Translations under genes and position numbers: made by a program
In this document: one piece after another, positions 33,001 through 60,100 of the stretch
How the letters are laid out: every line of letters starts with the position of its first letter
Numbering within the stretch: the first letter of the stretch is position 1
The notes under the pieces: generated by a model
Seen by the model: the letters and a program-made list of their open reading frames with translations, nothing else
Databases searched by the model: none
Told to the model about the DNA's origin: nothing
Assembly (NCBI GenBank): GCA_964106915.2
Contig: OZ066927.1
Strand: one strand, 5' to 3'
DNA: 64,000 nucleotides
Origin: Podarcis gaigeae
Lineage: Eukaryota

Positions 33001-36000
33001 AACCTATCCCCTTTGCATTCGATAATGACTTGTTTGTCCCAAATTCCACCTAGAGAGCAAAACTTCAATTTTCCAGATGTAATAAAAGCCATGTTAAATG
33101 TTTTTACGGCTCCATCTGTAGGGATTAGGACTTCACTCTGATTACTTGGCCTCTAACCATTTGTCTTCGTATTTGATGTGCCTGAAATGGTCAGCTAACT
33201 GAAAATGCCATTTGCCCCAATCTGCAACTCTTGTCTCTCAAGTGGGGGTGGGGTGGAGAGCAGTCTCTGAACAGAACCAGAAAAGTAAAAATAAATAAAA
33301 ATAAAATGGCAGGAAGATGCTTGAATACAACTTAATTATAACCACAGTGCTATTATAATTGTTGCTGTTGTTGTTCTCAATGTGGCATACATGGTCTACC
33401 TCCTCCCCATTTTACCCACACAGCAACACTATGAGGTAGGTTAGGCTGAGTGACAATCAATAGCCCAAAGATCAGCATGGATTTATGGATGAGTGAGGAT
33501 TTGGGGCCTGGGTCTCACAGTCTAACTAACCAATACACCAAACTGATTACTGCTTCCCCCAAGGTCCTATCCAGATTGAAAGTAACATAAAGTTGCTCAT
33601 AAGATTTGCTCTCTTTGAAGTTTCACAAGGTGAATCACAGAGAGTTGCATTTTGACAGACAGGTTTAAAAACAGATCCCTGCATGTTACGAAGAAGCATC
33701 CTGTTCCTTTCTAACTCCACAGACTTTCTGAACTTTAGTTTTGTTTTTTAATGCGCAGAAAAAAATTCCTCTTCAGAACCCCCTCGCCTCATTTCGCCAT
33801 CTTAGGGCTCTCGTGGAAAAGGATTTGGGCGCTTCAAAAGGGCAAGAGTACCAAGCAAAGTTACTTCAACTGAAGGTGGAAGAAGAGAAGGCAAAACCAT
33901 TAAGCAAAGTTTAAAAGCTGACCCGAATTAATCTTAGTTTGATTCAAACTGATGACAAAAGCAGCTCATTTTAAGAATATCTGTTGTGGTTTTGTATATA
34001 ATGACTATAGCAATGTTAACAGAACCAGCTGGACACAAGCAATTGTGTTCAAGATGGATGAAGTTACTATGGTATACCATATCCATCTCTCTTATCTCAC
34101 AGTCATATCAGGTCAAATCAGACTGGCAGGCTTGTGAGGCATTATGCCACCTTTTCCAGCCTTCCTGGCACTCTCCAGATCTATTTTGGACTGTAACTCT
34201 TATCAGCCCCAGTTGAGTCCTTCCCAGTCTTATCTAACCCATGGAAGTTGTAAGTCCAATACATTCGACAGGTTCCAGGTGGGATACAGCTGCATTGCAA
34301 AAAAAAAAAAAAAATCAGCAAATTCCCCAGATCTCTTGTTTTGTTTTGACTTATTTTGTTGTTGTTTTATGGTTTCAGGTTGTATTTTGGTTTTAATGGA
34401 TATTGTTTTGCTATTTTATAAAGTGTCCACGACTTAAAGATTTCAAAAATAATTAAAAAAAGTGGTTTAGAAACACTTTTAAATGAAATAAATAAATGAA
34501 ATAGATGCATTATGGGGCAGAGTGTGCTCAACATAGGCCTGTCTCGTAACACCTCCAACAACTATCCTAAATTGATAGATTGAATTTGTACTGAAGACTT
34601 GTCTGAACAAGCTATGTGCTGCCTGTGGGGTTTGCTTTTAAGGAAACACATATAGGGCCGTATTCAACAATAGTCCTACTCATAGGAGATGTACTGAAAT
34701 TAGAGGACATGGCTAAGTTAGGTCCACACATTTCTAAGGGTACAAACGTAGTTGGACCTAGCTGAAAATAACCCATAGGGCTGTTATAAAGAAGCTTGGC
34801 ACAACAAGCGATGATAGGGCTGTCATACGTCCGGTGTTTTGTCCTGGATCAATTAAAAAAAGTGCTTGTTTGGCATTTGTATAAAAAACACTCAACAACT
34901 TTATAGTTGCTCTTTTTGCTTTGGCGGCCAAAAAGCTAAGAAAGAAGACCTTGAACAACACAGCAGTGAACTGTAAGGGAGACACAGGGATCTAAACAGA
35001 GACCATTATTTGTGATGCAACAGCCCTTTTACTTCTTAAGACCCCTATGTATTTTTGATTCAGATGTTTCATGTCCAACGGCTAGTACAAGAAAGTTATT
35101 TGAATTCGAAAAAAAGCTCAACAACTTTCAGGGTGTCCTGGTTTTTTTTACTTTTTGAAATATGGCACCCTAATCAATGAATGCAGGGAAATAAAGTCAG
35201 AGAAACTTTGGTTTTGATTCAAGCTATGTGTGTGAATGCTAGGGGTGGAAGGCCCTATTAATTTCAGTTTTCCTGGTGTCAGGACTGCCGCTAGGTCCCA
35301 GCTCACAGAGGACCAACGCCCAGTGGATATTATATACAAAAGTCTTTATTGAAGTTTGGTTTCCATTTCCAAGCTCTGGGCGCGCAGGCCCACGTCTTAA
35401 CGCTAGACCGGCTAAGTCCCCTCTGACTCACTGCTCCACCCACACCAGTTTAAGATTCTAGCCCGGCTCCACCTCTTGCGCTGCTCTTTCCTGCGTTGGG
35501 TCCTTCTGCCCTCTGGGGTTCCCTCCTTCCTGGACTCCTCTGACGCGGAGCCTCCTGAGTCTTGCCCCTCCCTCCGGCGGGCTTTAGGACCTGGCTCCCT
35601 TCCCGGGCTCCCCGCTGTGCCGCGCTCCTGTACATTTGAACTTGGCGCGCGCGCCCAGCCGGTGACTTTCCTTCTGACCGTTTCCCCGCTTCCTGATGTG
35701 GGTGTTGCCAAACCTGACTCCTCTCCTCCCTCTGGTGGTGAGGACACTGGTCCCGACTCCTGGGACTCCCCCTCCCCACTGCGCTCTGGTGGAGACGCTG
35801 GCCCTGATCTCCAGCTGCTGTTCAGGGACTCCCCGCTGGCCCCTCCCTCTTGAGGTTTCTCCCTTGGAATCTCCCTTGCTCTGGCCACCGGCGCTCCCTT
35901 CTGTGAGTCCTCCGATTCGCTAGAGAGGCTTGTGGAATAACTCTGGCCACTGTCACTGCCTGCGCCCCCCTCGTACTCCTCCTCCTCACTCTCCATTTGC

Positions 36001-39000
36001 TCCCCCTCCTGTGTCTCTCCTTCTGAACCCCTGACACCTGGTTTCTGATTTTTCTAATCTTAAATTCCCCTCTTCACATTTTACAGCAATTTGTTTTTTC
36101 TGCAATATAATACAGTGGTACCTCTGGATGTGATCGGGATCCGTTCCGGAGCCCCGTTCGCATCATGAACAGAACGCAACCCACGTCTGCACATGCACGG
36201 GGCGCGGGTTGCTGCATCTGTGCATGCGTGTGAAGTCATTCTGAGCATCTGCGCATGCGCGAGTGGCGAAACCCAAAAGTAACCCATTCCGTCACTTCCG
36301 GAATGCAAACTGAAGATTCAACCTGAAGCAAACATAACAAGAGGTATGACTGTATAATGCATTTCTTAGTGCTATCTTCACTGATATCTTCATTTTCACG
36401 CACCTTTTCCTCTAACATGTGTGTTTTTGTAGACATTGTTGGCTGGAAAACTGCACTGCAAAATTCAACTAAGTGTGAATTTTGAAGGATAGTTGTGTTC
36501 GTGTGTGCGTATTGCACATTTGAAAGATTTGGCTTTAAATGTGTACTGAATCAAATTCCTTCTCCATCCCTAGTAAAGACCAAAGGGGTTAAGCCTTAAT
36601 CAAGGTAAACAAGAAGTGAGGACTCTTTGGCCTTCCAGATGCTGTTGGAATCCCAACACACATCAGCCCCAGCAAGCTGATGGTGTCAGGGATGATAGGA
36701 ACTGTAGTCCATCGACACCAGGGGACCCAAGGAAGTACAACTCAAATCAGCCCCATCTCTCATGGCCAGTGGTCAAGGACCATGGGAGTTGTAGTCTATC
36801 AACATCTAGAGGGTCACAAACTCCCCATCCCTGGATTCACCTATATGACAACGCATAAATGCAACACACACCACTGTTCCATACTAAATTACAACCAGAA
36901 CCTGAAATATTAAGCACAACTTAACTTACCTGGGGGTCTTGTGTGCTGAACACTTTCTCTGGAGAGATGAGGGAGAAGTTGTAAGCAAAAAGGAGCAGTA
37001 AAGCCAAGGGCACCATGTACAAATCAAAATGCCAAACCGTGACAACGAATACCTAAATGAAACAAAGGAAGACAGAAGGGGCTATTTACATCATTTGATG
37101 AAAAGAAAAGAGGGGAAGGAAGAAAAGGGAGGTGTGAAGAACAAAGCTTCTGACTCTTCATTCCTATGTGCATCCTTGAAGCTTCGCTAACCTCTGATCT
37201 CTCCCACTTTTGCATTCATGGGAAGATAATCACTTTGGATGTTTCCATGTTCCAAGTGCACCACGTTAGAATTGTTAGCGTTACCTTCTACTTTTGATTT
37301 TATTCTCATTGTAGGGATGTACAATTATGTAAACAAACAAGAAAAGAGAGACCTTGATGAAAGTTGAAAAAAGCAAGAGAGAGAAAGAACAAGGGGGGGG
37401 GGTGGAATGGAACACTCATTGAAACTGTATAGAAGAAATGCCTGTCACCTGCAGAACCACAGTAAAAAAAAGATGTCAGGAGCCAGGATGCCATCTTGAT
37501 AACACAGCACTCAAGTTGTAATTAGTTTAAAGATTGATTGCAATACAAACACTCAGCCTCGGACACCTATCTGTATGTCCATGACTTATGAATCGGTTGA
37601 CCCTTCTGGAGAGCGATTCCGGTTATGGCACAATATCCGGACCCTATGCCCTTTCTGTTTCCAACTTTGTTTTCTAAGACCTTTCCCATATGTCTGCTCC
37701 TTGAATGAATTAACTCCCCTTACAGTGTGGAACTGCTTTCCCTCTCCCCTTGCCTGTGTCACTTGAGAGAGTTGGTTGCTGTCTAGCACACTCTCTGCAT
37801 TCCTGTCATTCTCAAAGTGAGGGGAGTTGATAAATTACTGTTCACAGCTGTCTGGGAAGAATGCAAGCCTCTCTCTTGTTGGCTGCTTCCTGACTCCTCT
37901 TGAGCTCTTATACCTCGGGGAGAAGTGTTCATGACAAAGGATGTCTCCTATCTGATTGTTTTCGTTAGACATGAGCCATGCTGTTATAATAATAATAATT
38001 TATTATTTATACCCCACCCATCTGGCTGAGTTTCCCCAGCCACTCTGGGCAGCTCCCAATCGAGTTAAAAACAATACAGCATTGAATACTAAAAACTTCC
38101 CTAAACAGGGCTGCCTTTTAAAAATAGGATAGCTGCTTATTTCCTTGACATCTCATGAGAGGGTGTTCCACAGGGCGGGTGCCACTACCGAGAAGGCCCT
38201 CGGTCTGGTTCCCTGTAACCTCACTTCTAGCAATGAGGGAACTGTCAGAAGGCCCTCGGTGCTGGATCTCAGTGTCCTGGCTGAACAATGGGGGTAGAGA
38301 CACTCCTTCAGGTATACAGGACCGAGGCTGTTTAGGGCTTTAAAGGTCAGCACCAACACTTTGAATTGTGCTCGGAAACGTACTGGGAGCCAATGCAGAT
38401 CTCTCTGCATTACTCATTCAGGGCCAAGAACATAAGAAGAACCTTTTTGGATCAGGCCCATGCCACATCTACTCTAGCATCCTGTTCTCACAGTGATGCC
38501 CATGTGAAGCCCACAAGAGCCCTCTCCCCCTCTGTGGTTTCTAGCAACTGGTATTCAGAAACATTACTGGCCTCTATCATGGCTAGGAGCGATTGATAGC
38601 CATGAGTTTGTCCCATTCTCTTTCAAAGCCATCCAAGCTGGTGAGTGTGAGTTCCATATTCATGTTCATTCTGCTTCCCAAAGTAGCCAGTATAGGAGAG
38701 CCAGTATGGGGAACCTCAGGTCTGGAGGCCACGTGGAGCTAGTCACACCTATCTGGCCCTTGGGACTCCCCCACAAGACGTACTCCTTCCTGAGTCACAC
38801 CCCTCACCAGGTCACCCTCCTCCAGTGCTTTCGCCTGTGTGCAATTTGTCCTTGAACTCCAAGAGTACTTCTTGTTGGGAGGGTAGAGAGGGGAGTATGA
38901 GTTTCTGTAGAAATTGTACAAAAGATAGCAATCACATTCAGTGTTCTTTCCACTTCTGCCTCTGGACCCAAGCACCCCATGACATATGGCCTCCAAATGG

Positions 39001-42000: not shown

Positions 42001-45000
42001 TTATTTATTTTTTTTAAATCAGGCTGACCCCACGGGACAAACAACAAGGATTCTTCTGCTATTTGTTGGACCCACCGCGTTGCCTCAACCACTCTGGTTT
42101 GGTGGAAAACCTGCCTTTGAAGCTCTAGCCAACACATTGTACAACAGCAAACCCAGCGCTTAAGCTCTGGAGTCTCTAAACTTCATTTGTTGTCATTTTC
42201 ATTGTGTGGCTTCCCTATTCCAAGGGAAGCAAGGAGTGTTTAACAAAGCTAAGAATAAAAGCCACAAACCTATCAATACCAATTAAGTAAAATACACAAT
42301 AAAACACCAAGTTACCCCGCTTATTTTTATTGTTAAGATGTTTAATACAGCTAAATTCCCAGTGAAGGCTGTCCAGCTTTGACCATATGCACACTGCATA
42401 TTTGAACCACTATGATAACACTTTAAACATCCATGGCTCGCCGCAAATAATTTTGGGCTCTGTAGTTAGTTAAGGGTGCTGAGAGTTTGGGGAGAGCCCC
42501 TCCCAAAGCTGTAGTTCCCAGAGTTCCCTGTGAAGAGGGATTTATAGCTCTGTGGTGGGAATAGGGGTCTCCTAAGAACTCTCAGAACCCTTAACAAACT
42601 ACAACTCCCAAAATTCTTTGGGGGAAGCCATGTCTGCTTAAAGTGATACCACAGTTTTCTGAAATTATGGTGCAAACATGGCTCTAGATAAGGTCATGTG
42701 GCCTCCTTTGAGATTTAAGATTTTGGGGGTATTGTATGTTTTGTTTACTGTATAGGTTAAGTTTTTATTTGTATGTATAATTCTTATGTATATGTTTTGA
42801 GTTGCCCACAACCTGACCTTGGTTGCCATATGATTACTGATTTATCAGCTTCTCTATATGTCCTGAGTGACACAAAAATATTAAAAAAGCATGATGGAGG
42901 TATATAAAATTAGGTATGATGTAGAGAAGGTGGATGAAGAGCTTTTCTCTCTCTAATAACACTAGGACTTGGGGACATCCAATGAAGATTCAGGATACTG
43001 GAAGATTCGGGACATTCAAAAGGAAGTCCTGCACACAGAACATTGTTAAACTATAAAATTTGCTCCCCCCAATTGGAATGGCCTTCAAAAAAAAAAAGGA
43101 TTAGAAAAAGTTATGGGTGTGGGATTCAAAGAAAGAGAGGAGTTTTTTTCTCCTTCCTAATACCAGAACATTGGCCCTTGTGACTCTCCATAGGCAACTC
43201 CCCTCTACAGCCACATAAATTTTCCCCAAGCCGTATCCGTATCCATCACCAGCCAGTGTGTAGAAACTATCTTGTTCTGCAAAGGGGAAAGGCATATTTG
43301 TTGCTCTGCCTCTGGACTCACCCACCCCTGGCATGTGGACCCTGGAAGGTTGCCCAGAAGGATATGTGGCCCTCAGGCTGAAAAAGGTTCCACACTGTGT
43401 GTCTTATGGGGCTGATGGGAACTGGAGCCCAACACCTGGAGGACATCATGTTGGTTGACCCTGAGTTTCAAGCGTAATTAGGAGAATATTCTCCCTCTAT
43501 TTCTGCAAGACAATGAAGGTGATATATGAGAGACACCCAATATGTCTCCATCTTTGGGAAGCAGTCTAGGGCAGTGTTCCCCAACCTTGGGCCTCCAGCT
43601 GTTTTTGGACTACAACTCCCATCATCCCTCGCTAGCAAGACCAGTGGTCAAGGATGATGGGAATTATAGTCCAAAAACAGCTGGAGGCCCAAGGTTGGGG
43701 AACACTGGTCTAGGGGACTGCTTAACACTTGAGACTTTGTCTCATCAGGAAATGGCTTTTTCCACCTGCTTTGCCCCACCCCAACCCTAGGAGCCTTCAG
43801 AATGGAGCTGTTGCCATGGGCATTATGTGTATGTGCCTTTTGATGAACTGAGTGGAATATTATGAATCATGGAGGTGGGGAGTGTGTGTGTGTGAATTTC
43901 CACAGTGCTTAGTTTGTTAGTCTGTTAATTGTTAATGCTGTTAATATTATTTTGTGGATTATGAGTGCTGCAGTGCTTTGTGAATCTCATAATACGACTT
44001 TTGTTGTGGTTGTGCTGTTTAACTTAATTTTTTTAGTCGTTTTGTTAATAGTGTTTTATAGAAGGTGGTTGTTTTACAGATAATTTGTTCATTGTTATAC
44101 ATGGTTTATGTTGTAATTGTGATGTTCTATTATGTTTTTGTTATTTATTGTTTGTGACTCGGGGAGTGAAAAGCGGCCTAGAAATATAATAAATGAAATG
44201 AAATTAATTTAAAGGTAAAGGTTGTGCGCCCATCTCACTCAAGAGGCCAGGGGCCAGCGCTGTCCGAAGACACTTCCGGGTCACGTGGCCAGCGTGACAT
44301 CGCTGCTCTGGCGCGCCAGAGCCGCACACGGAAACGCCGTTTACCTTCCCGCTAGAAAGCGGTCCCTATTTATCTACTTGCACCCGAGGGTGCTTTCGAA
44401 CTGCTAGGTTGGCAGGCGCTGGGACCGAGCAACGGGAGCACACCCAGCGGCGGGGATTCGAACCGCCGACCTTTCGATCGGCAAGCCCTAGGCGCTGAGG
44501 CTTTTACCCACAGCGCCACCCGCTGTGGGTAAAATTAATTTACCTCCCTGCTGTTTGCCTGCTCAAAGTCGTCATCAACAGCAGCTTTTCTCATAGACAC
44601 AAGGACCCTGTACCATTTCCCTCTCCAGGTAGGAAAGCAGCTTATGAAAAGCAATTTTGAGCAGGAAAAAGCTGGAAGGGAAAGGGTTTAGCAGCCCTGC
44701 TCCTGCTGCTATTCCACTCCCCACTGCTGTATCTGATGCTCCTTTTCATTTAAAAGAAGCGATGGAGAAAGGCAGCTCACATTCATCCTTTCTTATTGTC
44801 TAGTCTGAACCAAAGTTAACCAAGACTGAAACACTGCTTAGTATTCTGATTGTATGCACTTCCACAATCCTTTGCTTTGCTTGTCACATTATTATTTTTT
44901 CTCAACGGCATCTCTCCCCTTTTTTAAATTATGCAGGTGACCAATGTGATAATGAAACACTTTGGCACTGTTTTGATCCTTCAGATATAATGACAATTAG

Positions 45001-48000
45001 CACCATGCAGCATCTATCTTAATGCTTGCTCCATTTAATGAAATGCTTATCGTAGTAGAAGGAGTCTCACAGTTTTGGAGGGATCTATATATGAATGATT
45101 AAAAAGAAACTGGCCCATTTTTTTGTACACACACACAGACACCACTGCTCTGTTTCAAAGACTCAAGGACACTTGACAACAGTTCTATGTTGTACAGGTG
45201 GGTCTGTGCACATTAAAGGGATAACACTGGAAAGAAGACATCATTGACTGGCATCAGAACATATGAAGCTACCTCATACTGAGAAAGACCACTGGCTACT
45301 GGTCCACAAATAATGAACTAAAACCAACAAATTTCACAATTCACTAGAAGTAGCTTGAATCCAATCGCCAATGTTGGGCAACCCAACAGTTATGGTTGAA
45401 CTACAGCTCCTACCATCTCTGACCATTGACCCTACTGGGTGGGTCTGATGGAAGTTTGACTCCAACCATCTCTGGAGGGCTACAGATTGCCCACACCTCC
45501 TTTAATTAATTGTGTTTATACCATTTGACACATCTTCCAAGGAACTCAGGGAATCCAACTCACCACTTCCAGGCCTGCCTGGGCAAACTTGTTATCATAT
45601 AGTTTATTCCAGGGATAGAGAACTTGTGACCCTTCATATATTGCTAGATGACAACTCCCAGACCATTGGCCATGACGGCTGGGGCTGATGAGCACTGGAG
45701 TTTAACAGCACCCAGAGAGTACCGTCTTATCCACCATGGCATTTTAGAGGGTTGGGTCTAAATGTACAAAGCTACCCCAGCTACAAAATCATCTCCTCAA
45801 TAATACTTGTCTGGAACCAACTTTGTTAACTTTTAGGCTCCATTAGGGGTACCTTTACCTTTACCTTTAAGGGTTTTTTTTTAATTTTTGCCTATAATTT
45901 TATTTATTGATATTGAGGATTTTACTGCTGTTTCTATGAGTTTGATGGGGTTTTTCCTCTTTTATGTTGCACATTGCTATTTTATCATTTGTTGCTTAAT
46001 TTTACTATTCAAATCGTATTTATATTGGGTTTTGTTTTCTCCATTCAATTGTAAACTGTCTTGGCAGGTTCTCAAAAGTTTGTTAGCATTTTAGTGCAGA
46101 TTATTTCATTCATACACACATACACACAGAGGCATGCAATTTTGCCCAATGTACATATTTTTAAATTATTATTATAAGCATTCCTGTGTACATTTATCTG
46201 TATTAGATACATTTTGGAGCGTATTGCCTGGTTGGAGAATTGCATTGCAAAATTCAGGGAAGTGAGAATTTTAAAGGATGGCTGCATGGCAGTTCACCTA
46301 TTGTTTCAGGAAGTGCGAATTAGGTAGAGTCACAATATAAATGTGAGCTGAACCAAAATTCCCCACCCCACAATCCCACTTACAGGCTGAGCTCTCTGCA
46401 TAATATCAGTATGAAGAACAATGCACAGTCCTTCTGGATCAGGTCCTGCTTAACCAGAGGTGCAGCGGCCAAGGGTTAAAGACTTGTTACTATTTCTGCA
46501 ACAGGGTTCATGTCTCCAGCATCCTAGGGCTGGCCAATCAGCATGAAAGGTGGAGCCCTTTAGCCACTGAGAAGAAGCCGTCTCACCTTTTGTGCTGGTT
46601 GGAACCAAACACAGTGAAAAGAGGTGAGTCAGCCAGTGAGGATTGGCTCCTTGGGTCAATCTGGAGAAGGCAACCAGGAAAGAAGTTATCCCATACGCTC
46701 CAGAGCTAAGCATTTAGGAACACAGGCAAAAACAAGGTCCTTCGGTTTCCAGAGAATAGTGTGGCAAGTTATGTCAAATACAATGAAACTTCAAAGCTTC
46801 AAAAGAAGATATATGAGCACTCCAAATCATTTGCCCAGAAAATAGTAGATCTAGCTGAAAGTCAACCTGTGGAGAGCTGCAATGGTTGTTGCAATGCACC
46901 CATAAGTACAATTATTGTGTAATTATAAGATTGTTGTATAATCTTAAAAGGTTGTATAATGGTATGGCTATGAGAGCACTCAGCTGTGACAATTTCTGAA
47001 TTTACCACTACACTACTTGACTTGACTTAAAAGGGCCCAACTTCCTCGCCTATTGCGAAAGAGCAGAGTGGCTTCTTATCTTTCTGGGTCTTTTGCAGTT
47101 GAGTCCTCCAGGGAAGTTAGGGCCACATCCTGGCTCCCCGGGCTCATCTGATAGTAGGGTTTCTGTGTACCCTTCTCCTTCGGGTTATATGTATTATTTA
47201 TTCTCTACACTCTCCTCCTCTACCTGATGAAGAGAACTCCTAGTCCCTGACAAAAACCCTGTCAAGCCTGCTCACTTTTTGTTTGTTTTGGTGCTTCGCT
47301 GATCGGTTGGCAAACCCACGCAGCCCCCCGTCTATCAGAATTTCAGTAGTTGTATGTTAAAGGTAAAGGTAAAGGTACCCCTGCCCGTACGGGCCAGTCT
47401 TGACAGACTCTGGGGTTGTGCGCCCATCTCACTCAAGAGGCCAGGGGCCAGCGCTGTCCGGAGACACTTCCGGGTCACGTGGCCAGCGTGACATCGCTGC
47501 TCTGGCGAGCCAGAGCCGCACACGGAAACGCCGTTTACCTTCCCGCTGGTAAGCGGTCCCTATTTATCTACTTGCACCCGGGGGTGCTTTCGAACTGCTA
47601 GGTTGGCAGGCGCTGGGACCGAGCAGCGGGAGCGCACCCCGCCGCAGGGATTCGAACCGCCGACCTTTCGATCGGCAAGTCCTAGGCACTGAGGCTTTAA
47701 CCCACAGCGCCACCTGCGTCCCTAGTTGTATGTTAACACAGCTCAAATAGCCTCACAGCTGAAGACGAAACGTGCATCCAGTTATCAAGATTTTGTACAA
47801 GTTGTACTGCAGATCAAGGCTGAAGCAACAGATAAGCAAACGGGGCTAGAAAATAACTTGGGGGTGGGGGAGAGACGAGAGAGCAATTCTGCCAGAATGA
47901 ACCAGAAGCAATAACAACAAAGGGTGTAAGGGATATAATATTTTGGACTTTCCCCCCATTTGTGATTGTATATCGCCACCTACAGGAATCTCCCACCTCT

Positions 48001-48117: not shown

Positions 48118-51100
48118 GTGTAAGGGCCAGGATTTCCCACCAGACATAGAATGAAGCATTTTCACTAGGCCAGTTGTAATAAATGAACACTTCTTAGCAT
48201 TGACTCAAGATTCATTTCAAGTGTTCAGAGCCTTTCATGTGAATTCCTTAACAATGTGCTCACAACTAGCCCCAAACTGGGGTAGCAAATTGTGTGGGGG
48301 CGGGGTGGAAGATGTTTATTTAACTTCATTAAATAAAAAAAATTAAAACTTTTTTTTAAAAAAAAGAATTAAATTTATTAGTCTCTTGTCACCCAAAAGG
48401 TTTCCAAACGACTTGCCCTGGGAAAAAATACATTTTTTTCTGTCATCAACATAGCAATATGTACTGTATTTTTCGCCCTATGGGACGCACCGGCCCATAG
48501 GACGCACCTAGTTTTTTTTTGGGGGGGGGGGGAAATCAAGGAAAAATATTTTATTTTCCCCCCAGGTTTGCGCAGCCATCCCCAAGCTAGAAGAGGGAGA
48601 CGGAGCGCTCCGTCTCCCTCTTCTGCCTTCAGGGACAGCCTCTCTAGCCTCCGTGGGGCAGCGGCTTGCCCCGCTGTCCCCCGTGCTTGTGGGGCTGGCA
48701 GGGGGGGAGAGGCAAACTTGCTCCCCCCCCCCGCCAGCCTCCAGATCAGGTCCAGGAATAGCTGGGTGGCGGCGCTCCGCCTCCCCGCTATCCCCCGAGC
48801 TTGTGGGGCTGGTGATGGGGAGAAGCAAGCTTGCTTCTCCCCCCCCCCAGCCTCCAGATCAGGTCTGGGAATAGGTGGGTGGCGGCGCTCCGCCTCCCCG
48901 CTGTCCCCCGAGCTTGTGGGCTGCAGGCTGCTGCCCGCAAGCCTTGCGAGCCCGCGGGACCTCCCGCCGGCTTGCAAGGCTTGTGGATAGCTTCCTGAAG
49001 CCTGCATTCGCCCCATAGGACGCACACACATTTCCACTTCATTTTTGGAGGGGGAAAAGTGCGTCCTATAGGGCGAAAAATACGGTAGTTAACTGAGCTA
49101 CATGGAACTTTTCCATCAGTTCTGTAGAGTTAAGAAAAATAGGCCATAGTCCTGTTAAAGTGTACAGAAATTATTATGGAAATTCCTTTCTTTCAGAAGC
49201 CAGAATGGATAATTCTCAGCATTCTTGACTTTGCCAAGTTGGTGTCCCTCACCTGTTTGGAACTGCAGACTCCCATCAGCCCTGTCAGAGGTGTCAAGTT
49301 GCCCCCAAGACTGAGGGGGCACACAGATGACATCACGTTGTCTGGAGGAGGATGAGAGATCTGGAGGAGTGGGCCACTGAAGCCGTGCCTCGCTCAGCTC
49401 TGTGCCCGGCCTCCTCTGGAGGACACTATGTTAACAAAGAAACAGAATCTGGCCTGTGTGAGCAGGTGGTGGGCTAACCCTTACTCATAGGGTATCCATA
49501 GTGGGCTACACTCCTCCAAGTCTCCCTCTTACACTCTGTAAGTTTCCATGTGCATGCACACATACCACTTATAAGAACATAACAGCCTCCTGGATCAGAC
49601 CAGTGGCCCATCTAGTCCAACATTCTGTTCTCACCATGGTCTGTGGGAAACCCATAAGCAGGATTCAAGCACAACAGCACCCTCACCCCCTGCAGTGCTC
49701 TGCTCACCTGCGATTCCTAGCCACTGGCATTCAAAGGCATAATGCCTCTGTTGCAGCTAGTAGTCCCTGATCGGGTTCTCCTCCATGAATCTGCCTAATC
49801 CTCTTTTAAAGCCATCCAAGATGATGACCATCACTACCTCCTGTGGGAATGAATCCCATGGTTTAAGTACACACTGCATAAAGAAGTACTATGTTTTATT
49901 TGTCCTGAATCTTCCAACATTCAGCATCATTGGATGTCCATGAGGAAAAGTGTTACGAGGGAGAAAACCCTTTTTCTATCCATTTTCTTGATGCCATGCA
50001 TGCTTATATAAACTTCTAACAAGTCACCTCTAACTCAGCTTCTCTCTAAACTTGTTGTTTAGTCGTGTCCGACTCTTTGTGACCCCATGGACCAGAGCAC
50101 ACCAGGCACGCCTGTCTTCCATTGCAATTTGGTCAAACTCATGCTGGTAGCTTCGAGAACACTGTCCAACCATCTCATCCTCTGTTGTCCCCTTCTCCTT
50201 GTGCCCTCAATCTTTCCCAACATCAGGGTCTTTTCCAGGGAGTCTTCTCTTCTCATGAGGTTGCCAAAGTATTGGAGCCTCAGCTTCAGGACCTGTCCTT
50301 CCAGTGAGCACTCAGGGCTGATTCCCTTAAGAATGGAGAGGTTTGATCTTCTTGCAGTCCATGGGACTCTCAACAGTCTCCTCCAGCACCATAATTCAAA
50401 AGCATCAATTCTTTGGCAATCAGCCTTCTTTATGGTCCAGCTCTCACTTCCATACATCACTACTGGGAAAACCATAGCTTTAACTATACGGACCTTTGTT
50501 GGCAAGGTGATGTCCCTGCTTTTTAAGATGCTGTCTAGGTTTGTCATTGCTCTCTCTAAACTAGAAGGTCCCAAATGCTGCAACCTTTCCTCATAGGGTG
50601 GACCCTCCACCCCCTTTATCATTTTGGTTGCCCTTTTCTGAACCCTTTCCAACTCTACTGTATACTTTTGAGTTGTGGCAACCAGAACTGTACACAGCAT
50701 AATGAGGGACATGCTGATAGTTTATACAGAGAAGCCAACAAAATATTTGGTACTGGTAACAAAATATTGGAATATCAGTATCAGAAACATTCCTTCTCCT
50801 ATGATGGCAGCAATTCTTATTGGCTAGGCTTGTAAGGGCTGATGGAAGTTGTAGTTCAACAATACCTGGAGGGACAATGATTGTGCACACCTGTCATAGA
50901 GCACTCTATTCCCCCCTCCCATAGGGCATTCTGACCCTTATTTTCAAAGCTCGCGGCAGTTTGCCTGCCTAATGTAGCCACACCACCACTTGGAAGTTCT
51001 GCCTTAGCTTTAAGGTTTTAATAAAGAGAGAGGGAAAGAAAGAGGGAGACCCTGGCTACCTCGTCATATATTAAGAACCCTCACCTAAAAGTGCTGGGAC

Positions 51101-54100
51101 TTTCATGCACCCATAAAGATTTCCTCACAACCACTCCCACACTGCAGCCCCAAATATGATGAAAATGGGTGAGCCCATTTTTTTATCAAGTGATTATCTG
51201 ATTATCGAGAAACAAGTGGAATGATTTCCCAGGATGGAAAATGAACCACCACATAATGTTGTGTTGGAGGAAAATGTGTTGTCAGCCCTAACATCTGGTG
51301 GCCCAATGACAAGGAGGGAACCAAAATGCATCTCCTGACACAAAGCACAGGAAGAATGTAAGAAGAGCCCTGGCAGATCATAAGAACATATCCACAGCCT
51401 CCTGGATCAGGCCAGTGACCCATCTAGTCCAGCATCCTTGTTCTCACAGTGGCCAACCAGATGCCTGTGGAGAGCCTGCAAGCAGGACCTAAGTGCAACA
51501 GCCACTCTCTCCACTCATGATTCCTGGCAAGTGGGATTCAGAGGCAATCCTGAGATACATGGTCTGACTTGGCACACAGCTGTTTCCCATGTCCTAAATC
51601 AGCCTCTCCCATGGAAGATGCAATAACCCATAAGAACACAGGAAGAGTGATGCTGGACCAGGCCAAAGGCCCAATTAGTGCAACATCCTGTTCTCAGAGT
51701 GGCCAACCAGATGCCTCTGGGATGCCTGCAAGCAAGACCTGAGTCCTCTCCACACCTGTTATTCTCAGAAAGTGATACTCAGGGGCCTACAGCTGCCAAT
51801 GTTGGAGGTAAAACATAGCCATCATGGCTAGTATTCCCCATCCATTCTTGTACTATAGAAGCTCTCCTCACTGCCACCACAAACATCAATAGGCATTTTA
51901 TGGGTATTAAAATAAAGAGATGCAGTACATAAAAATAAATTCTGGCAACTATGGTGAGTAAAAAAACACAGAACAATTCAAGGCGAGTGAAAAACAGCTC
52001 ACAGACAGCACTGAGCCACAGAGGTGGGTGAAGGGACCACGATGGGGGGTTTCTCTCTCCAGAAAACATCAGATCAGGCAGCTAAAATTATTGCCGCCGT
52101 TCTCTTGTAACTGTCACCTGTGGTGGGTATAATTACAGGTTACTGCCGCAAGCACGCCCACCTCATATGGCAGTAAAAAGGACCCACTGCTTGCCAAGCC
52201 CAGGCGCACAATGGAGAAGACGCACCATCTAACTGAGTCCAAAAAAGAGAACAGCCAGGGAGACTAATAAAAATGACAGCTTAGAAACAAAAATGATAAA
52301 GCTCTGAAGCTTCGGAAACCAACCAACGCACACACACACAAGCTAGCTAGTTGGCAATGTAAGTACTGAGCTCAGTTCTCTGACAGTTCAGGGCAATGCA
52401 AGCAGTTTGAATTGTCTCCTTGTTTCCTTTCTGCTGGGTTTGGGTTTTTTAGTTCTTCCTTCCTGCCATAAAATGCTTGCACAAGTTATTAAGAACCAGG
52501 AGGGTGGACCAAATCAGCAAAACAAAATGAAAGGCAGGACTAGCAAGCCACGAAGAGTATTCAAAATGGAACAAAGGTTAGCTTTGGAAAGGCTGTATCT
52601 CAGTGGTAGATCATCTGCTTTGCATGAAGAAGGTTCAGTCTCTGACATCTCCATGTTCTCTGCATGAAACTTTGGAAAGCCACTGCCGGTCAGTGTAGGC
52701 CATGGGTAGGCAAACTGAGGGACAGTGGAGTGGCCCCCTGCTGAAAACTTTTGCTGACTCCTGCTGTAGACAATACCGAGGTAGTTGGATCAAAAGCATC
52801 ACTCCATGTTTCTAAAGGCACCTTATTGCTCTCTCTTCCCAAGCACCACAGCATCAATGCGCAAAAATAAAGGTATCCACCATTTGTGGCTCAGCACACT
52901 TGAGAGATCATGGGTGGCCAGTGTGGAACACTAGATAAATATGAAAAGCCTGATCCAGCAGGCTCTCCTTGTGTTCTTATGGGTAAGTTGCAATGTTCAG
53001 AGCAGCAAAAATATGACATATATAGGATCTGTACCACTTGTGTGGCCCACCCAAGCTACAACTCTGCATGCACAGAAAATATAAATATGTTCATTGGAGG
53101 CACCACTTTCTCATGGGAGACAGAACTAGACCTGCCTCCCCCTCCAAATCCTGTCCAGCCAGAACCTGGAGATCATCTACCTCCCCAAACGTTGGTGATG
53201 CTCACCAGAGGGGAGGGAGGAGCCAGCACTTCAGCCCCCACCAGAGGAGAAGGGGACCACCACCTTCCCACTCTGCTCCTGTGTTGTAGCCTCCCTCTCC
53301 CATTCCTCCTCACCTTCCACCAGAGTCTGCCCTCCTGGGTTTTACCCAAAGGGGCTGTGACACTCGTGACAGCGTGCAAAATAATGGGGGATGACCATAT
53401 GTTTGTAATGGGGAGAAGGGCTATAATTTATCGAATAGGAAGAGATGTACATCAGAGGCCATGTACACAGACCATGAGAGACATATAAAGCTTTTTCATA
53501 TGATACCTATGAAGAGCCCTGCTAAGGGTCCAGCATCCCACAATGCTATGGTTTCCCACAATGGCCAACTAAATGCCTATGGGAATCCCACAAACAGATG
53601 CCTATGGGAAGCCCACAAGGTGATAGCAGTTGTATGGTGGGGTACTGGTTAGTGTCAGAGACTGGCTAAATGGGGAAGATTGATTGGTGGGAGTTGGGTG
53701 GGCTCTGAAGATTTAGATACCAGATTCTGGTGGTGGGAGACTGAAGAGAAATCTGCAGAAGAGACAAGCTGGGAGCTGGGTTGAGTGATCAAAGGCGGTC
53801 AAGAGAAGGAGGCCCTTCCAGGACATAGTTAGAGGTCGAGAGTCACAGTGTGAGCACAGACTGTCCCAGTCCTGCTGACTCTCCTCCCCCTCTGACACCC
53901 TGTTCAAGGAGAGACTTGCACATTTGCTGAGCAACAGATCAGGCAGGCCCAGAGGAGGAGCTCACCCCATCAATGCAGGTTTTGTCTGCTTGGGAAGGAT
54001 CCAGACTGAAAGGCTAGAAGGAGAGGATGCAGCTAGTGGTCAGTTTCAGTAACATCTCAGCTGGATTAATACAGGCTGGAGGACTCTGCTGCATTGTTAT

Positions 54101-57100
54101 TTTCTGTTAATAAAGAGCTAATTGCATTCTGTGCCTCCCATATGTGTGCCTGCCCTGTGGTTGACCTGGCTCGTTGATGGCTCCTTGACAGAGTGCTGGA
54201 CTAGGACCTGAGAGACCAGGGTTCAAATCCTCACTCTGCCATGAAGCTCACTGGGTGAGCTCGGGCCAGTCACTGACTCTCAATTGAGCTCACAGGGTTA
54301 TTGTGGGAGTTAAATGAGGGAAAGAACCATGTGTGCCATATCTGGAGCCCCTTGGAGAAAAACATGGGACATAAATGCCATAAATAAATAGTGTTCTGCC
54401 ATAGGTGACCCCACTGCAGCTGGTAGTCAGTGGCATGTTGCCTCTGAACTGAGAGGTTTTATATGTGGTCAATAGTGATGGTCTTTTCCCTAAACTAAAG
54501 GTAAAGGTAAAGGGACCCCTGACCATTAGGTCCAGTTGTGGACGACTTTAGGGTTGCAGCGCTCATCTTGCTTTGTTGGCCTAGGGAGCTGGTGTACAGC
54601 TTCCGGGTCATGTGTCCAGCATGACTAAGCCGCTTCTGGAGAACCAGAGCAACTCACAGAAATGTCATTTACCTTCCCGCCAGAGTGGTACCTATTTATC
54701 TACTTGCACTTTGACCTGCTTTTGAACTGGTAGGTTGGCAGGAGCAGGGACCGAACAATGGGAGCTCACCCCGTCGCAGGGATTCAAACCGCTGACCTTT
54801 TGATCAGCAGGTCCTAGGCTCTGTGGTTTAACACACAGCACCACCCGCCTCCCTCTTTCCCTAAACTAAAAAGTCCCAAATGCCGCAACTTTTCCACATA
54901 ACAGAGTTACTCCATCCCCTTGAACATTGCCCTTGTCTAAACTTTTCCAATTCTACAGGGGAGTTTTTTCGAGGTGAGGTGACCAAGTCTATTTTAGCTG
55001 ATGAACATGATTTTTATTTTGTTTTGTGAGAGTAGGAAATCAAGAAGTCTGCTACCAGATGGTGCCCTCTGATTTCACGTTTAGAATTCAGTTGGACTGG
55101 TTAAAAAAAACCCTTTGACTTAGTTCAAAACTGGTGATGGGAATATGTCCTCCATCTGAGGGCCCCACCCTCAATATCTGCTGTCTGAGGTGGCTGCCTT
55201 ACTCTGCCTAATGGTAGAGCTAGTATTGTAGAAAACTCATATTGGTTCTCTCTATTTACCCTCCTGTATCATCAAAGCTGGTGAGGCCGCTTAAGCCTTC
55301 ATTCAAGTAAGGCATATTTCATAAGAAAAAGCCCCAGCTTGCATACAAACTTGTCTGTACAGACTTTTAAAGGGCTGGAGTAAGGGTGGAGGAGAGACAG
55401 TCAAATACAACGTCCTTTTAATTTCCCTCATATTACAGTAATTGCATTAAGAAAACTGTAATTTCATTAAATGGCATAATTACCATTAATACTTGGCAAA
55501 CTGTCAATAGAAGGGGTAATTATTCCGAAGAAAAAATTATAAGCAGAATGTGCAACGATGCATAATTCCCCACAACAGCAATCCAACGCTTAAAATTTAC
55601 CTTTAAAATGTTTTTAAAATATGTATTACCCAGTGGTAGCAATTAGCTCCATGTGGCAGGCGTAACTTTCAGGACCAAAAATCTGCAGAGGGAGCTTTTC
55701 AGCAGAGATTTAGAAGGCAATTCAAAGCAACTTCCCAAACACTATTAAAAGGAGGAATCTTGGAATATGTTTCACTTTTGCATTCATTAGGAGAAGCACA
55801 CACAAAAATGTGTATAAATTTTCATGCACTTTTGGGGTTTTTTAAAGAAAAGTTTGCAAACTCATACAGGAATGCAACAGACTGAATTTTTTTGCATTGG
55901 ATCAGATTGTTATTACGTGTGTGATCTTTGCTGTCTATTTAGTTGTTTCTTCAGCTTTTAAACTGCCTTGGGTATAGTAACACAGAAAGGTGGCATACAA
56001 ATTGATAGTGAAATGAAAATGAGCTCATGATTGGGGGAAATGAGAAATCGAGAGAAACTGAAAATTTACAGGTTCAGCCATCCCTAGATCCTAGTCATGT
56101 ACCTGCCCACCACGATACTAGCCAGCTGTTTCCATCAGAAGACAGAAAGCATCCTTATAAAAACAACTAAACGTTAATAGATGATCTATTAACACAAAGA
56201 GATCATGAAAATATATATGGAATTGTTGCTAATTGTTTTGTCATTGAGGCTCTTAACTGTGAGATTGCTTCAAGATATTTTGTGGGATGAGACTCCTAAA
56301 TGAAATCATATAAATTAAATATATGAATTTGTGTGCTTGTGTGTGTGTGTGTGTGGATGAGAGCGGAGGATGTGGATTTGAAGTCACAATTGAAAAAAAC
56401 AACAGTGGGATTTTGGCTGCTGGGACTTGCTGATGAGACTCTTTCCTATTTTTATTTTCAACCAATATAGGCTAAAGAGTGAGAGAACGACCAAAGATGA
56501 TGAGAATCAGGGCAGAATTATTTCCTGCATTATTCTGGCAAGTGGCACACCCAAGAGCTGCTAGGGTGTAACCAAACCGTTAATTTAAAGAAAACGAGGC
56601 TTTGCAGAAACTCAGAGATGGAACGGAAAAGGTCTATCAACATATCCTGACAAATCAGCCCAGAATCATATCCACCCACTAAGGGCAGGTCACAATTTAG
56701 AACCAGAACACAAACTTCTGCAAAATGAGCAAGTGGCTCTGAATCAAGACTGAGAATTTATTTCAATAACACACCAAGATAATTTTATCAGTGGTCAACC
56801 ATATACAGTTAAGTAATATGAATAATAATTTTTAAAAAAACAGGACAGTGCTGAATGTTCTCTTGTTCTACTGCAGGGGTGAGGAACCCCAGTCAGCACA
56901 GAGGGTGAGAAGTCTTCTTCTCCATGGCTAAAAAGTGCCCCTTTCAGGCTGACTGGGGGGCTCCAGGACACTGCAGAAAGGGGGCTTGCTGCAGAAATAG
57001 TAATGAGTCTGTGACTGTCAGGGACTGGACTGAGAAGGAATGGTGAAGACCACCCACCCCTTCCTGAACCTTCCCAAGAACAGGAGGACATTGTTGATTT

Positions 57101-60100
57101 AGAATAGCGGTTTGCAGAAGGTCATAGTTCAGAGGCTGCAGAGGGGAAGAGCTAGGAAATATTGGGAGAGTAGCAGGAAGAAAAAGCACCAGGGGAGAGA
57201 CAGCTGACAGATTCAGTGTCTTTGGAAAGCATTTCTGAACCCCCCTCCAGGACCCGATGTGCATTGAGAGTAGTAGAACAGAAAGCTCAGAGGCAAAAAG
57301 CGCAGGTCAGCTAGCGCAGGGTTGAAGTAGAACAGGAGAGACAGAGGGGTGGAACTTTACTTGGAGCTACGCCATTATCTGAGAGTCCATCTCTCTCTGT
57401 GAATTTTGAATAAAATAACATGGTAAGAACTTTTTGTTTTCCCATTGCTGGCTGCCAGCCGTGAGGGAGGGGGAGCCTGACAGTGACCTCCCTCCCCCTG
57501 CGCAACCGCAGACTGCTAAACCCCTGACTGGGACACTTCCCAGGCCATGCTCCCCAGGCTCACAAACCCTCTCTGACCCAGCTCTTAGACTTCCTTCTGT
57601 CATTTTACCTGGCTGGAATGTGTGGTAACGCCTCTTGTTTGCCTGGGTGAGGGAAGGATAGAGATGATTGTGCCTGGTCTCTTTCCCCACACCGAGCCCT
57701 GGTATGTGGTTCTCATGAGGAAATGTGTCCCTTGAAATGGAAAGGGCTCCCTACTGCTGCCTTAGTAAGGTAAAGGTAAAGAGACCCCTGACCATTAGGT
57801 CCAGTCATGACTGACTCTGGGGTTGCGGCGCTCATCTTGCTTTATTGGCTGAGGGAGCCGGCGTACAGCTTCCGGGTCATGTTGCCAGCATGACTAAACC
57901 GCTTCTGGTGAACCAGAGCAGTGCATGGAAATGCCGTTTACCTTCCTGTTGGAGCGGTACCTATTTATCTACTTGCACTTTGATGTGCTTTCGAATTGCT
58001 AGGTTGACAGGAGCTGGGAGCTCACCCCAGCGCGGGGATTTGAACCACCAACCTTCCAATCGGCAAGTCCTAGGCTCTGTGGTTTAACCCACAGTGCCAC
58101 CTGTGTCCTGCTGCCTTAGTACTTTATACTATACAAAGGCATATATATCAAATCTGTTGCTCATATTAGGCAATGTCCATCACTGAAACATACCCTCTGC
58201 CTCAGAAGGTTACCCACAAGGGAATGTGACCTTCAGGCTGAAAAGGGTCCCATCACCGCTTCCACAACATGGTATTGGTGTCACAGCACAGTGCAGCTAA
58301 TCAGATTTGGTGACATGACAACCTTGTTAAGAGCAAACAGAAGACTAGCTCTCACTGACTTGGTCAATGGCTGCTACAGGTAGGGGCTCATAGGCAAAGC
58401 TATCACATTAGGGCCAAGTGTAGGCAAGATATTTGTCTATGACGTGTGACTATGTGCAAAGATTTCAGTGTGTTTGTGTACGTATATTATGTAAGGCCAC
58501 ACACCAGATTTTGCATCAAAATGCAATTTTGTTGCTTGCATACAAATAAATAAGCAGATTTACCTGTTCCTGGTTGTTCTGCACAACTTTGGAAAGGCCA
58601 GCTGCTATATGGATGTCGATAGACCCATCCCCAAATATTGACAATCTACCAGACACTGCCTACACAATTTCTAGTTCTTACAGCTGGAAATATCCATTTG
58701 GAACTTTTGGTTTTGAATATGTTATCAGGACATTTGATTCTGCACCTAATACTAGATTTTGTAGCAGGATTTATATGCTTGCCTGGAAATGTAATGTAAA
58801 CTTTACCCTAGAGTTAATAGTGACTACTCTTCCATTGCCAAGAAAGGGGACAGATTTGCAAATAATTTGCACATGCTAGTTTATATGTATATATCCCAAT
58901 GTAGGGGAAATGCTTTTTATCCAACTGAGTTCGACTCACAGTAGACCAATTAAAATTAATGAGTATATCTAATTTAGGCCCCTTAATTTCAATAGGTTTA
59001 CTCTGAGCAAAATGTCATTGGATGCAACCCAATTTCTATAATTTGAACAGAGATTTTGCCACAGTGGGAAAGAATGTGACCAGGGGACCTGTTTGCTCCC
59101 TCAGTCTGCTTTCCAAATGCTGTTAACTGAGGGTGGGGGACAAATTCAAAGCCCAAGCTCTTCCTCCCTATGGTTCTTTATCTCCAAATTAGACTTAGAC
59201 CTCCAAATAGAGGTGCAATTCAACTCCACATGGCTCTGTGAAATATAAATAGCCCATTCCTCCAGACACATACACAGCCCATCATAACAAGGAGCATTTC
59301 ACAGTCATCTACTGAGAAAAGTCATTTATGAGAACACATTTAATTCTGTGAGAAGGCTTAGCCACTTACCACAAATGCTATCACACTCCTGACGGGAGAT
59401 TCCCATAGAAAGCAGCTTTGGAGAAACTGTATCATGTTCCATATTGCCATAGTGATTCTTTTCACACGGTCAACGTTTCTCGACAAGATCTGGTGAGCAT
59501 GAGGTGGGAGGGAAAAGAAGATTCAAAACAAGGAGGACTTTAAAAACAAAACAAAAAGGAACAGGGGCATGATAAAAAAAATTCAAATAAATAAATAAAG
59601 CAAGCTCTTGCGTATCTATCTAACCTTTCTGCATGTGGAAATGCCCTCTCTAGTTAAGTCTGTGTGCTTGGAATGTGTCAACAAATCTATTTACTCCTCC
59701 TTGACTATTCCACCAATGCTAAAGGACAAAATGATAGGAGACAACTATTATTGAAGGGGGGCAGGTAGCCACAGCAGGACGATCACTGGCTGGGAGGTAG
59801 GTACCAACGTTAGCCTCCCCAGCCCTTTTCCACTGTACCTGTAGAACAGCAGCCTGCTGTAGAGGCAAGGTTTGGCTACCCAGAGGCGGAGCTACCTGCT
59901 CCGACACCCGGAGTGGCGCAGAGGTGGGGCTAGCCAGCCTGCGAGGGCAGGGCTAGCTGCCCAAACAGTGAGCATCCCTAGCTGGGCACTAGCCTCCCGC
60001 GGCAAGCGTCCAGGGGGCATGGCAAGTGTGGGGTGCGCTGATGTTGCCCCCCTCAGGGATGGCACCCAGAGCAGACCGCACCCCTGCAACCCCCTTCCTC

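Follow-up and report, generated by a model that had tools for sequence, protein, structure and literature searches.

A decayed reading frame in a solo LTR of Podarcis gaigeae as a probable fossil of an LTR-encoded integrase tail

The locus and its long terminal repeats

The 64,000 nucleotides of Podarcis gaigeae DNA analysed here (contig OZ066927.1 of assembly GCA_964106915.2; the window) contain a solo long terminal repeat (LTR) at 57016–57482, called LTR B, with a decayed acidic reading frame inside it. This frame is probably the remnant of an integrase tail that a Ty3/Gypsy retrotransposon encoded in its LTR. Two further LTRs serve for comparison, LTR A (35277–36036, minus strand) and LTR C (53653–54190, plus strand). 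The original prediction had likened the frame to those of two other LTRs that it left unnamed, and we take these to be A and C. The features of LTR B are the following.

57011–57015, plus strand: left target-site duplication GTGAC, an exact 5-bp repeat
57016–57482, plus strand: solo LTR B, 467 bp, TGTCAGG...CCTGACA
57017–57043, plus strand: alternative N-terminal reading from LTR base 2, VRDWTEKEW, ending at a stop at 57044
57018–57311, plus strand: decayed acidic frame from LTR base 3, with no start codon, stops at 57105, 57153 and 57171, and the next stop at 57312
57243–57296, plus strand: P-S-R-T-R ... EQ segment, the best-ordered part of the model of the related protein P0006 (helix 80–93, predicted local distance difference test 71–83)
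57298–57312, plus strand: KRRSA, in the base-1 frame only; not RRSAR, and not in P0006
57409–57414, plus strand: AATAAA polyadenylation signal, 68 bp before the LTR end
57483–57487, plus strand: right target-site duplication GTGAC, an exact 5-bp repeat

LTR B is a solo LTR: it has TG...CA ends, a perfect 7-bp terminal inverted repeat, a target-site duplication and a poly(A) signal, and no internal region. Its start at 57016 had been placed correctly, while the extent given earlier, to 57330, stops short of its true end at 57482. The ends TGTCAGG and CCTGACA match the att motifs TGTYANR and CNTNACA, tabulated for Sushi LTRs (PMC3601003). LTR B abuts an older repeat of about 118 bp (56894–57010), which has an inverted counterpart at 46480–46597 with 75% identity.

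The surrounding DNA is repeat-rich vertebrate sequence, with a GC content of 40–49% and many dispersed copies that resemble short and long interspersed nuclear elements (SINEs and LINEs); we take these to be Sauria SINE, BovB/RTE and CR1 copies. Protein matches at 64–67% identity in Podarcis muralis point to a lacertid-type lizard. When TG...CA elements flanked by target duplications were sought, 13 candidates emerged; a second scan, which also required a poly(A) signal, gave nine, and a purine share of at least 0.60 was found only in LTRs A and B. Among 131 open reading frames of the window (at least 82 codons), Pfam returned no real match and no pol domain, apart from one low-complexity match, and an Rfam scan of the 64 kb gave none.

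The decayed frame in LTR B

All of the peptide pieces quoted in the original prediction are present in LTR B, the 12-residue piece in the base-2 frame, the long acidic piece in the base-3 frame and KRRSA in the base-1 frame. They had been joined from base 2 by one frameshift and a further 1-nt shift to KRRSA, a register that is not confirmed. In the base-3 frame no shift is needed to read from 57018 up to the first stop at 57105. Entering from base 2 would add one stop and one frameshift, and P0006 follows the base-3 register from the LTR start. Thus the base-3 register fits two of the three copies (LTR B and P0006), and base 2 could still be the true register had a C-rich run close to the start slipped in an ancestor common to the copies. 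It had also been noted that each stop lies one substitution from Q, W or E, but this is true of all three standard-code stops and is hence uninformative. Pfam recognised no family in the frames of LTR B and LTR A at expect values (E) up to 1. With no start codon and no upstream pol, the frame in this copy is almost certainly not translated.

LTR A and the tail of Gypsy Pol proteins

Evidence on the nature of such frames comes from LTR A, which belongs to a different family (family A) and contains an intact frame.

35277–36036, minus strand: solo LTR A, 760 bp, with a 5-bp duplication CCAGG and a CpG observed/expected ratio of 0.54
35415–36035, minus strand: intact 207-codon frame from LTR A base 2, corresponding to the C-terminal tail of Podarcis muralis Gypsy Pol proteins

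Among 5934 candidates, the LTR A frame matched five longer proteins (P0001–P0005, E 9e-51 to 8e-10), four of which UniRef names as Gypsy integrase-like in Podarcis muralis; two of these four represent clusters of 23 and 24 sequences. Upstream of the tail, Pfam identifies reverse transcriptase (RT), RNase H (RH), integrase (IN) and Tf2-1 SH3 domains, in the order protease (PR)–RT–RH–IN–SH3, with a chromodomain after the integrase. In all five Pol proteins a Gly-rich stretch ending in GGMD is followed directly by VRGS, the start of the LTR A frame, and the LTR-encoded tails are 151–218 residues long. The Gly-rich stretch is explained by the polypurine tract, which encodes such residues, and the frame opens at LTR base 2 because the junction codon, to judge from the protein junction, ends on LTR base 1. 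By these alignments the LTR A frame is the last approximately 209 residues of Pol, whose frame continues past the polypurine tract and on into the 3' LTR. This read-through, seen for family A, is a cause that the original prediction had missed.

The tails run open to the end of LTR A in three of the five Pol proteins (four of six counting A itself), with 51–65% identity to A; that of P0003 stops early, and that of P0005 leaves the frame near its end. LTR A differs from the three full-length Pol tails at 73–102 residues, and the chance that no stop would have arisen under neutrality was calculated analytically as 0.0015–0.009. Conserved islands within the tail include a 10-residue stretch and, in four of four full-length tails, a run of basic residues near the C-terminus with RWS and WC after it. 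LTR A, being young and intact, is better suited to experiments than LTR B.

Between the integrase and the tail, the chromodomain lies 141–194 residues upstream of the LTR junction (Pfam Chromo, E 6.7e-5; the score of 23.2 bits falls just short of the cut-off, 25.1), and after it comes a conserved acidic linker, rich in Trp and likewise of 141–194 residues. The domain aligns with HP1-type chains (E 0.0013), and the C-terminal part of Pol gave only Chromo clusters in the ESM Atlas, at 0.78, which is a lead only. The positions of the aromatic cage were read from the HP1 alignment, and their identity is in part our assumption. The first and second are non-aromatic in all five proteins and the third in four of five, the first position of P0004 lying in a doubtful N-terminus; the central cage Trp is missing from all five (e.g., P0002, residues ~1080–1130). 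Judged by its residues, the family A chromodomain is degenerate and lacks the full set of three aromatic residues that defines the methyl-lysine-reading group I. It also differs from plant group II chromodomains, which usually lose the first and third aromatic residues (PMC3605345). The AlphaFold2 model of P0004 (predicted template modelling score, pTM, 0.19) is mostly disordered; the tail is not docked on the chromodomain, but the chromodomain is itself unfolded in this model, which therefore says nothing about such a contact. A comparison of P0004 with PDB sequences gave one chance match (E 5.6).

Relatives of LTR B

A phmmer search with the base-3 frame of LTR B (X at stops) against 1.84 billion representative proteins gave four matches. 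P0007, an Ig-repeat protein, and P0008, a repetitive one, were dropped as compositional. The other two, compared as proteins only, are real relatives: P0006, with 107 residues (69% identity, E 8.8e-26), and P0009, with 57 (E 3e-6). Residues 2–103 of P0006 align to the base-3 frame with three codon-sized gaps and no frameshift, and P0006 has sense codons at all three internal stops of LTR B, so that these stops look like private lesions of this copy. From its beginning at the LTR edge to its end P0006 stays in the base-3 frame, and it contains no RRS; P0009 enters the acidic frame from a third register. The AlphaFold2 model of P0006 (pTM 0.26) is mostly disordered, and its only well-supported element is a helix over the RTR-EQ segment. 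The ESM Atlas gave no usable feature match for P0006, and its structure matches, which rest on a model with a pTM of 0.18, were set aside.

A more distant relative lies upstream of LTR B in the window.

53653–54190, plus strand: older decayed LTR C, 538 bp, TGTCAGA...CTTGACA, AATAAA at 54109, no exact target duplication

P0006 aligns to LTR C with a score of 52, reached by none of 500 shuffles, against 21 of 500 for LTR A. In a window-wide scan with P0006, LTR C comes next after B but barely above background (52 vs. 50), and its significance rests on its prior choice by its ends. It had been stated that the DNA of the LTRs is not obviously alignable beyond the termini. For B and C, whole-LTR DNA does align (none of 500 shuffles reach the score; five of 500 for the first 330 bases), and by both the P0006 and the DNA comparison LTR C is a true distant relative of LTR B. 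Identity between the two by codon position is 0.59, 0.57 and 0.64, with no difference, and therefore protein-level conservation beyond DNA descent is not demonstrated. The kinship of B with A at the DNA level was rejected as compositional: none of 200 mononucleotide shuffles reached the local score, but 254 of 500 dinucleotide shuffles reached the global one. CpG observed/expected ratios (0.54 for A as listed, 0.22 for B and 0.09 for C) suggest that LTR A is younger than B, and B younger than C.

Another LTR-like start, with 11 bases identical to LTR B, lies at 47252 on the minus strand and extends to about 46985; it is purine-rich and decayed, with no clear end, and a CTTGACA end-like motif stands seven bases before it on the same strand. 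This sequence has no protein similarity to P0006 (186 of 500 shuffles reach the score).

Origin of the LTR B frame

LTR B would have been left by a Ty3/Gypsy retrotransposon of the Sushi/Tf1 type, chromovirus-like, in a lacertid-type lizard. In such an element pol would not end after the integrase but continue across a degenerate chromodomain, then an acidic linker and the polypurine tract, to enter the U3 region of the 3' LTR. There it would encode a C-terminal tail that is disordered, acidic and rich in Ser and Pro and has a short basic end, and it would stop shortly before the poly(A) signal. Since the LTR is copied to both ends of the element and survives recombination, each solo LTR would carry the tail frame without a start codon; in LTR B it would be a non-expressed fossil, decayed since insertion. 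We infer read-through for B from features that it shares with A, namely the 7-bp ends, the 5-bp length of the target duplication, the abundance of purines on the sense strand and the closing of the frame ahead of AATAAA, and from its open relative P0006. On these grounds the LTR B frame is probably the fossil of an LTR-encoded integrase tail. Such a tail is most likely a loosely constrained integrase extension, whose basic end aids nuclear import or chromatin contact.

Several observations weigh against this origin. The LTR B frames show no similarity to the family A tails beyond composition (for the base-3 frame, 19–98 of 200 shuffles reach the scores). A Pol fused to the LTR B frame was found in none of 232 and none of 6167 candidates, which is weak evidence, and only the two short relatives emerged from the 1.84 billion representatives; one of them, P0009, carries two frameshifts relative to LTR B, one of them in the C-rich run near the start. 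Stops are not depleted in LTR B, with four in the best plus-strand frame where shuffles average 3.2, and 1767 of 2000 shuffles have no more than it. For family A, the database proteins were found because they are open, which biases the open-frame counts upward, and the tail is the least conserved part of Pol, with 52–74% identity against 93–94% in the integrase core. As to the type of element, the 5' end of LTR B also matches the rGmr1 motif of the same compilation (PMC3601003) and is thus not diagnostic by itself.

Some of these points would suit a frame that was never translated, arose as a by-product of the many purines in U3 (GAG/GAA/AGG repeats) and persisted among copies through DNA descent only. 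The undepleted stops and the missing Pol fusion agree with this explanation, as does the modest acidic enrichment of the frame: 26–31 of 2000 shuffles reach it, and in particular the share of D/E in the base-3 frame over 57016–57330 is 0.20 against 0.15 (26 of 2000 dinucleotide shuffles). The equal conservation of codon positions between B and C and a 120-codon open frame on the opposite strand of LTR B point the same way. On the other hand, P0006 is open over its whole length in the same frame with codon-sized gaps only, and family A, with identical ends, has its U3 frame within a predicted Pol; we regard the untranslated by-product as unlikely. A small gene starting inside the LTR, like the U3 genes of retroviruses, or a host gene exapted at the locus, is far less credible. 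Although gene calling made P0006 and P0009 short independent proteins, each with a start of its own, these starts differ in position and frame, as automatic calls would; moreover, the LTR B frame has no ATG and three internal stops, the family A frame is part of Pol, and the window-wide Pfam search described above revealed no host domain.

Beyond a fossil tail, a more ambitious proposal can be made, which we hold only tentatively and consider rather doubtful: several lacertid chromovirus families may have lost the chromodomain cage and use the 3'-LTR-encoded tail as a chromatin tether that steers integration. In that case the tether might consist of the short basic/aromatic end of family A (R/K-rich RWS-x4-L-x-WC) and of the RTR-EQ helix in the lineage of B and C.

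The proposed HMGN-type anchor

The original prediction also saw one protein motif conserved across divergent LTR families and, in it, an arginine anchor for the nucleosome acidic patch of the HMGN type. A coding frame with an acidic, Ser/Pro-rich and then basic layout does recur in these LTRs; a single motif across all families does not. Family A has RWS instead of RRS and variable residues in place of EQ, and the full motif gave no matches in the six frames of the window with one mismatch allowed per block. A looser, frameshift-tolerant pattern matches only LTRs B and C on both strands of the 64 kb, but it was tuned after seeing them, and the two LTRs are related by descent and so not independent. 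The KRRSA piece needs a further shift and is followed by S instead of R (RRSAS), and the end of P0006 differs from it. In shuffles of LTR B, RRS appears in some plus-strand frame in 1277 of 5000 and RRSA in 62 of 5000. RRSAR does not occur in the six frames of the window, and LTR B, its relatives P0006 and P0009 and each of the five Pol tails lack RRSxR. The residue that serves as anchor in HMGN2 and Dsup is the final arginine of RRSAR (R26 in HMGN2; PMC12487698); the likeness of LTR B to their motifs (RRSAR, RRSARLSA) is RRSA in one frame, and the difference is that the anchor arginine is lacking and the piece lies out of frame. In favour of an anchor, the RTR-EQ segment forms the one ordered helix in the P0006 model, and short arginine anchors are used by viral and retroviral proteins (PMC9040877). 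Overall, an HMGN-like anchor in a conserved P-x-T-R / EQ / RRSxR motif appears highly improbable.

The tail may have a chromatin-targeting role through a different motif, though this is rather doubtful; the likeliest candidate is the basic end of the tail in family A. Here a working analogy is offered by acidic-patch tethers such as the chromatin-binding sequence (CBS) of foamy virus Gag, LANA of Kaposi's sarcoma-associated herpesvirus and IE1 of cytomegalovirus, in which a short basic motif within a disordered region links the viral genome to chromatin (PMC9040877); the analogy involves no demonstrated sequence similarity.

Comparison with known systems

An LTR-encoded integrase tail is already known in plant CRM chromoviruses. 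In group A of these elements, and in Beetle7 and Bingo1–4 and 7 of Beta, the pol frame crosses the polypurine tract to end inside the 3' LTR, and the LTR-encoded part comprises the integrase C-terminus with a putative targeting domain, the CR motif (PMC3059260, PMC3605345). The extension of Pol into the 3' LTR is seen in family A and is presumed for LTR B. In CRM group A the CR motif replaces the chromodomain, whereas family A keeps its degenerate chromodomain upstream of the junction, has a disordered tail of approximately 209 residues as its LTR part, resides in a lizard and is not known to associate with centromeres. Pfam gave no match for the LTR B and A tails, although similarity to the CR motif was not tested directly. 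The lizard elements are, by their arrangement, CRM-like in layout and not members of CRM group A; the kept chromodomain remnant and the long disordered tail set them apart.

With vertebrate Sushi/Tf1-group chromoviruses (Metaviridae), family A shares the att ends, AATAAA near the 3' end and the order PR–RT–RH–IN–SH3–chromodomain, but its chromodomain is without the central cage Trp in each of the five proteins. The Sushi U3 is described as T-rich (PMC3601003), whereas the U3 here is purine-rich and coding. Database models of Podarcis muralis named 'Gypsy retrotransposon integrase-like protein 1' in UniRef already contain the tail, without remark. No report of an LTR-encoded integrase tail in lizards or other vertebrates was found in a literature search for which most subscription papers were beyond reach, so that this is weak evidence of novelty.

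As a dead remnant, the LTR B copy itself is of interest only because it leads to the question at the family level. Solo LTRs are usually regarded as non-coding, yet thousands of genomic copies (the number is a guess) may hold fossils of integrase tails. The evolution of the tail could then be read from LTRs alone, and caution would be needed before such frames are called orphan genes. Should targeting indeed have passed from a dead chromodomain to the tail, the plant CR motif, for which no binding partner had yet been identified in 2011 (PMC3059260), would have an independently evolved parallel in vertebrates; and if the tail acts as a tether, U3 would be under promoter and coding constraint together.

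Other elements of the window

A CpG-rich SINE copy at 47348–47737 (plus strand) lies between 14-bp direct repeats (TAGTTGTATGTTAA) and looks recent; it has 95% identity over 304 bp to a copy at 44220–44523. A segment of 331 bp at 44827–45157 (plus strand) has a 7-bp terminal inverted repeat (TGAAACA), a 5-bp duplication (AAGAC) and a poly(A) signal, and is possibly another small solo LTR, or a product of chance. Open frames without a Pfam match are found at 20564–21205 (plus strand, 213 codons) and 15844–16335 (minus strand, 163 codons). Finally, a GC-rich element at 48378–49088 contains an internal repeat of about 114 bp (89% identity) and long open frames on both strands, likewise with no Pfam match.

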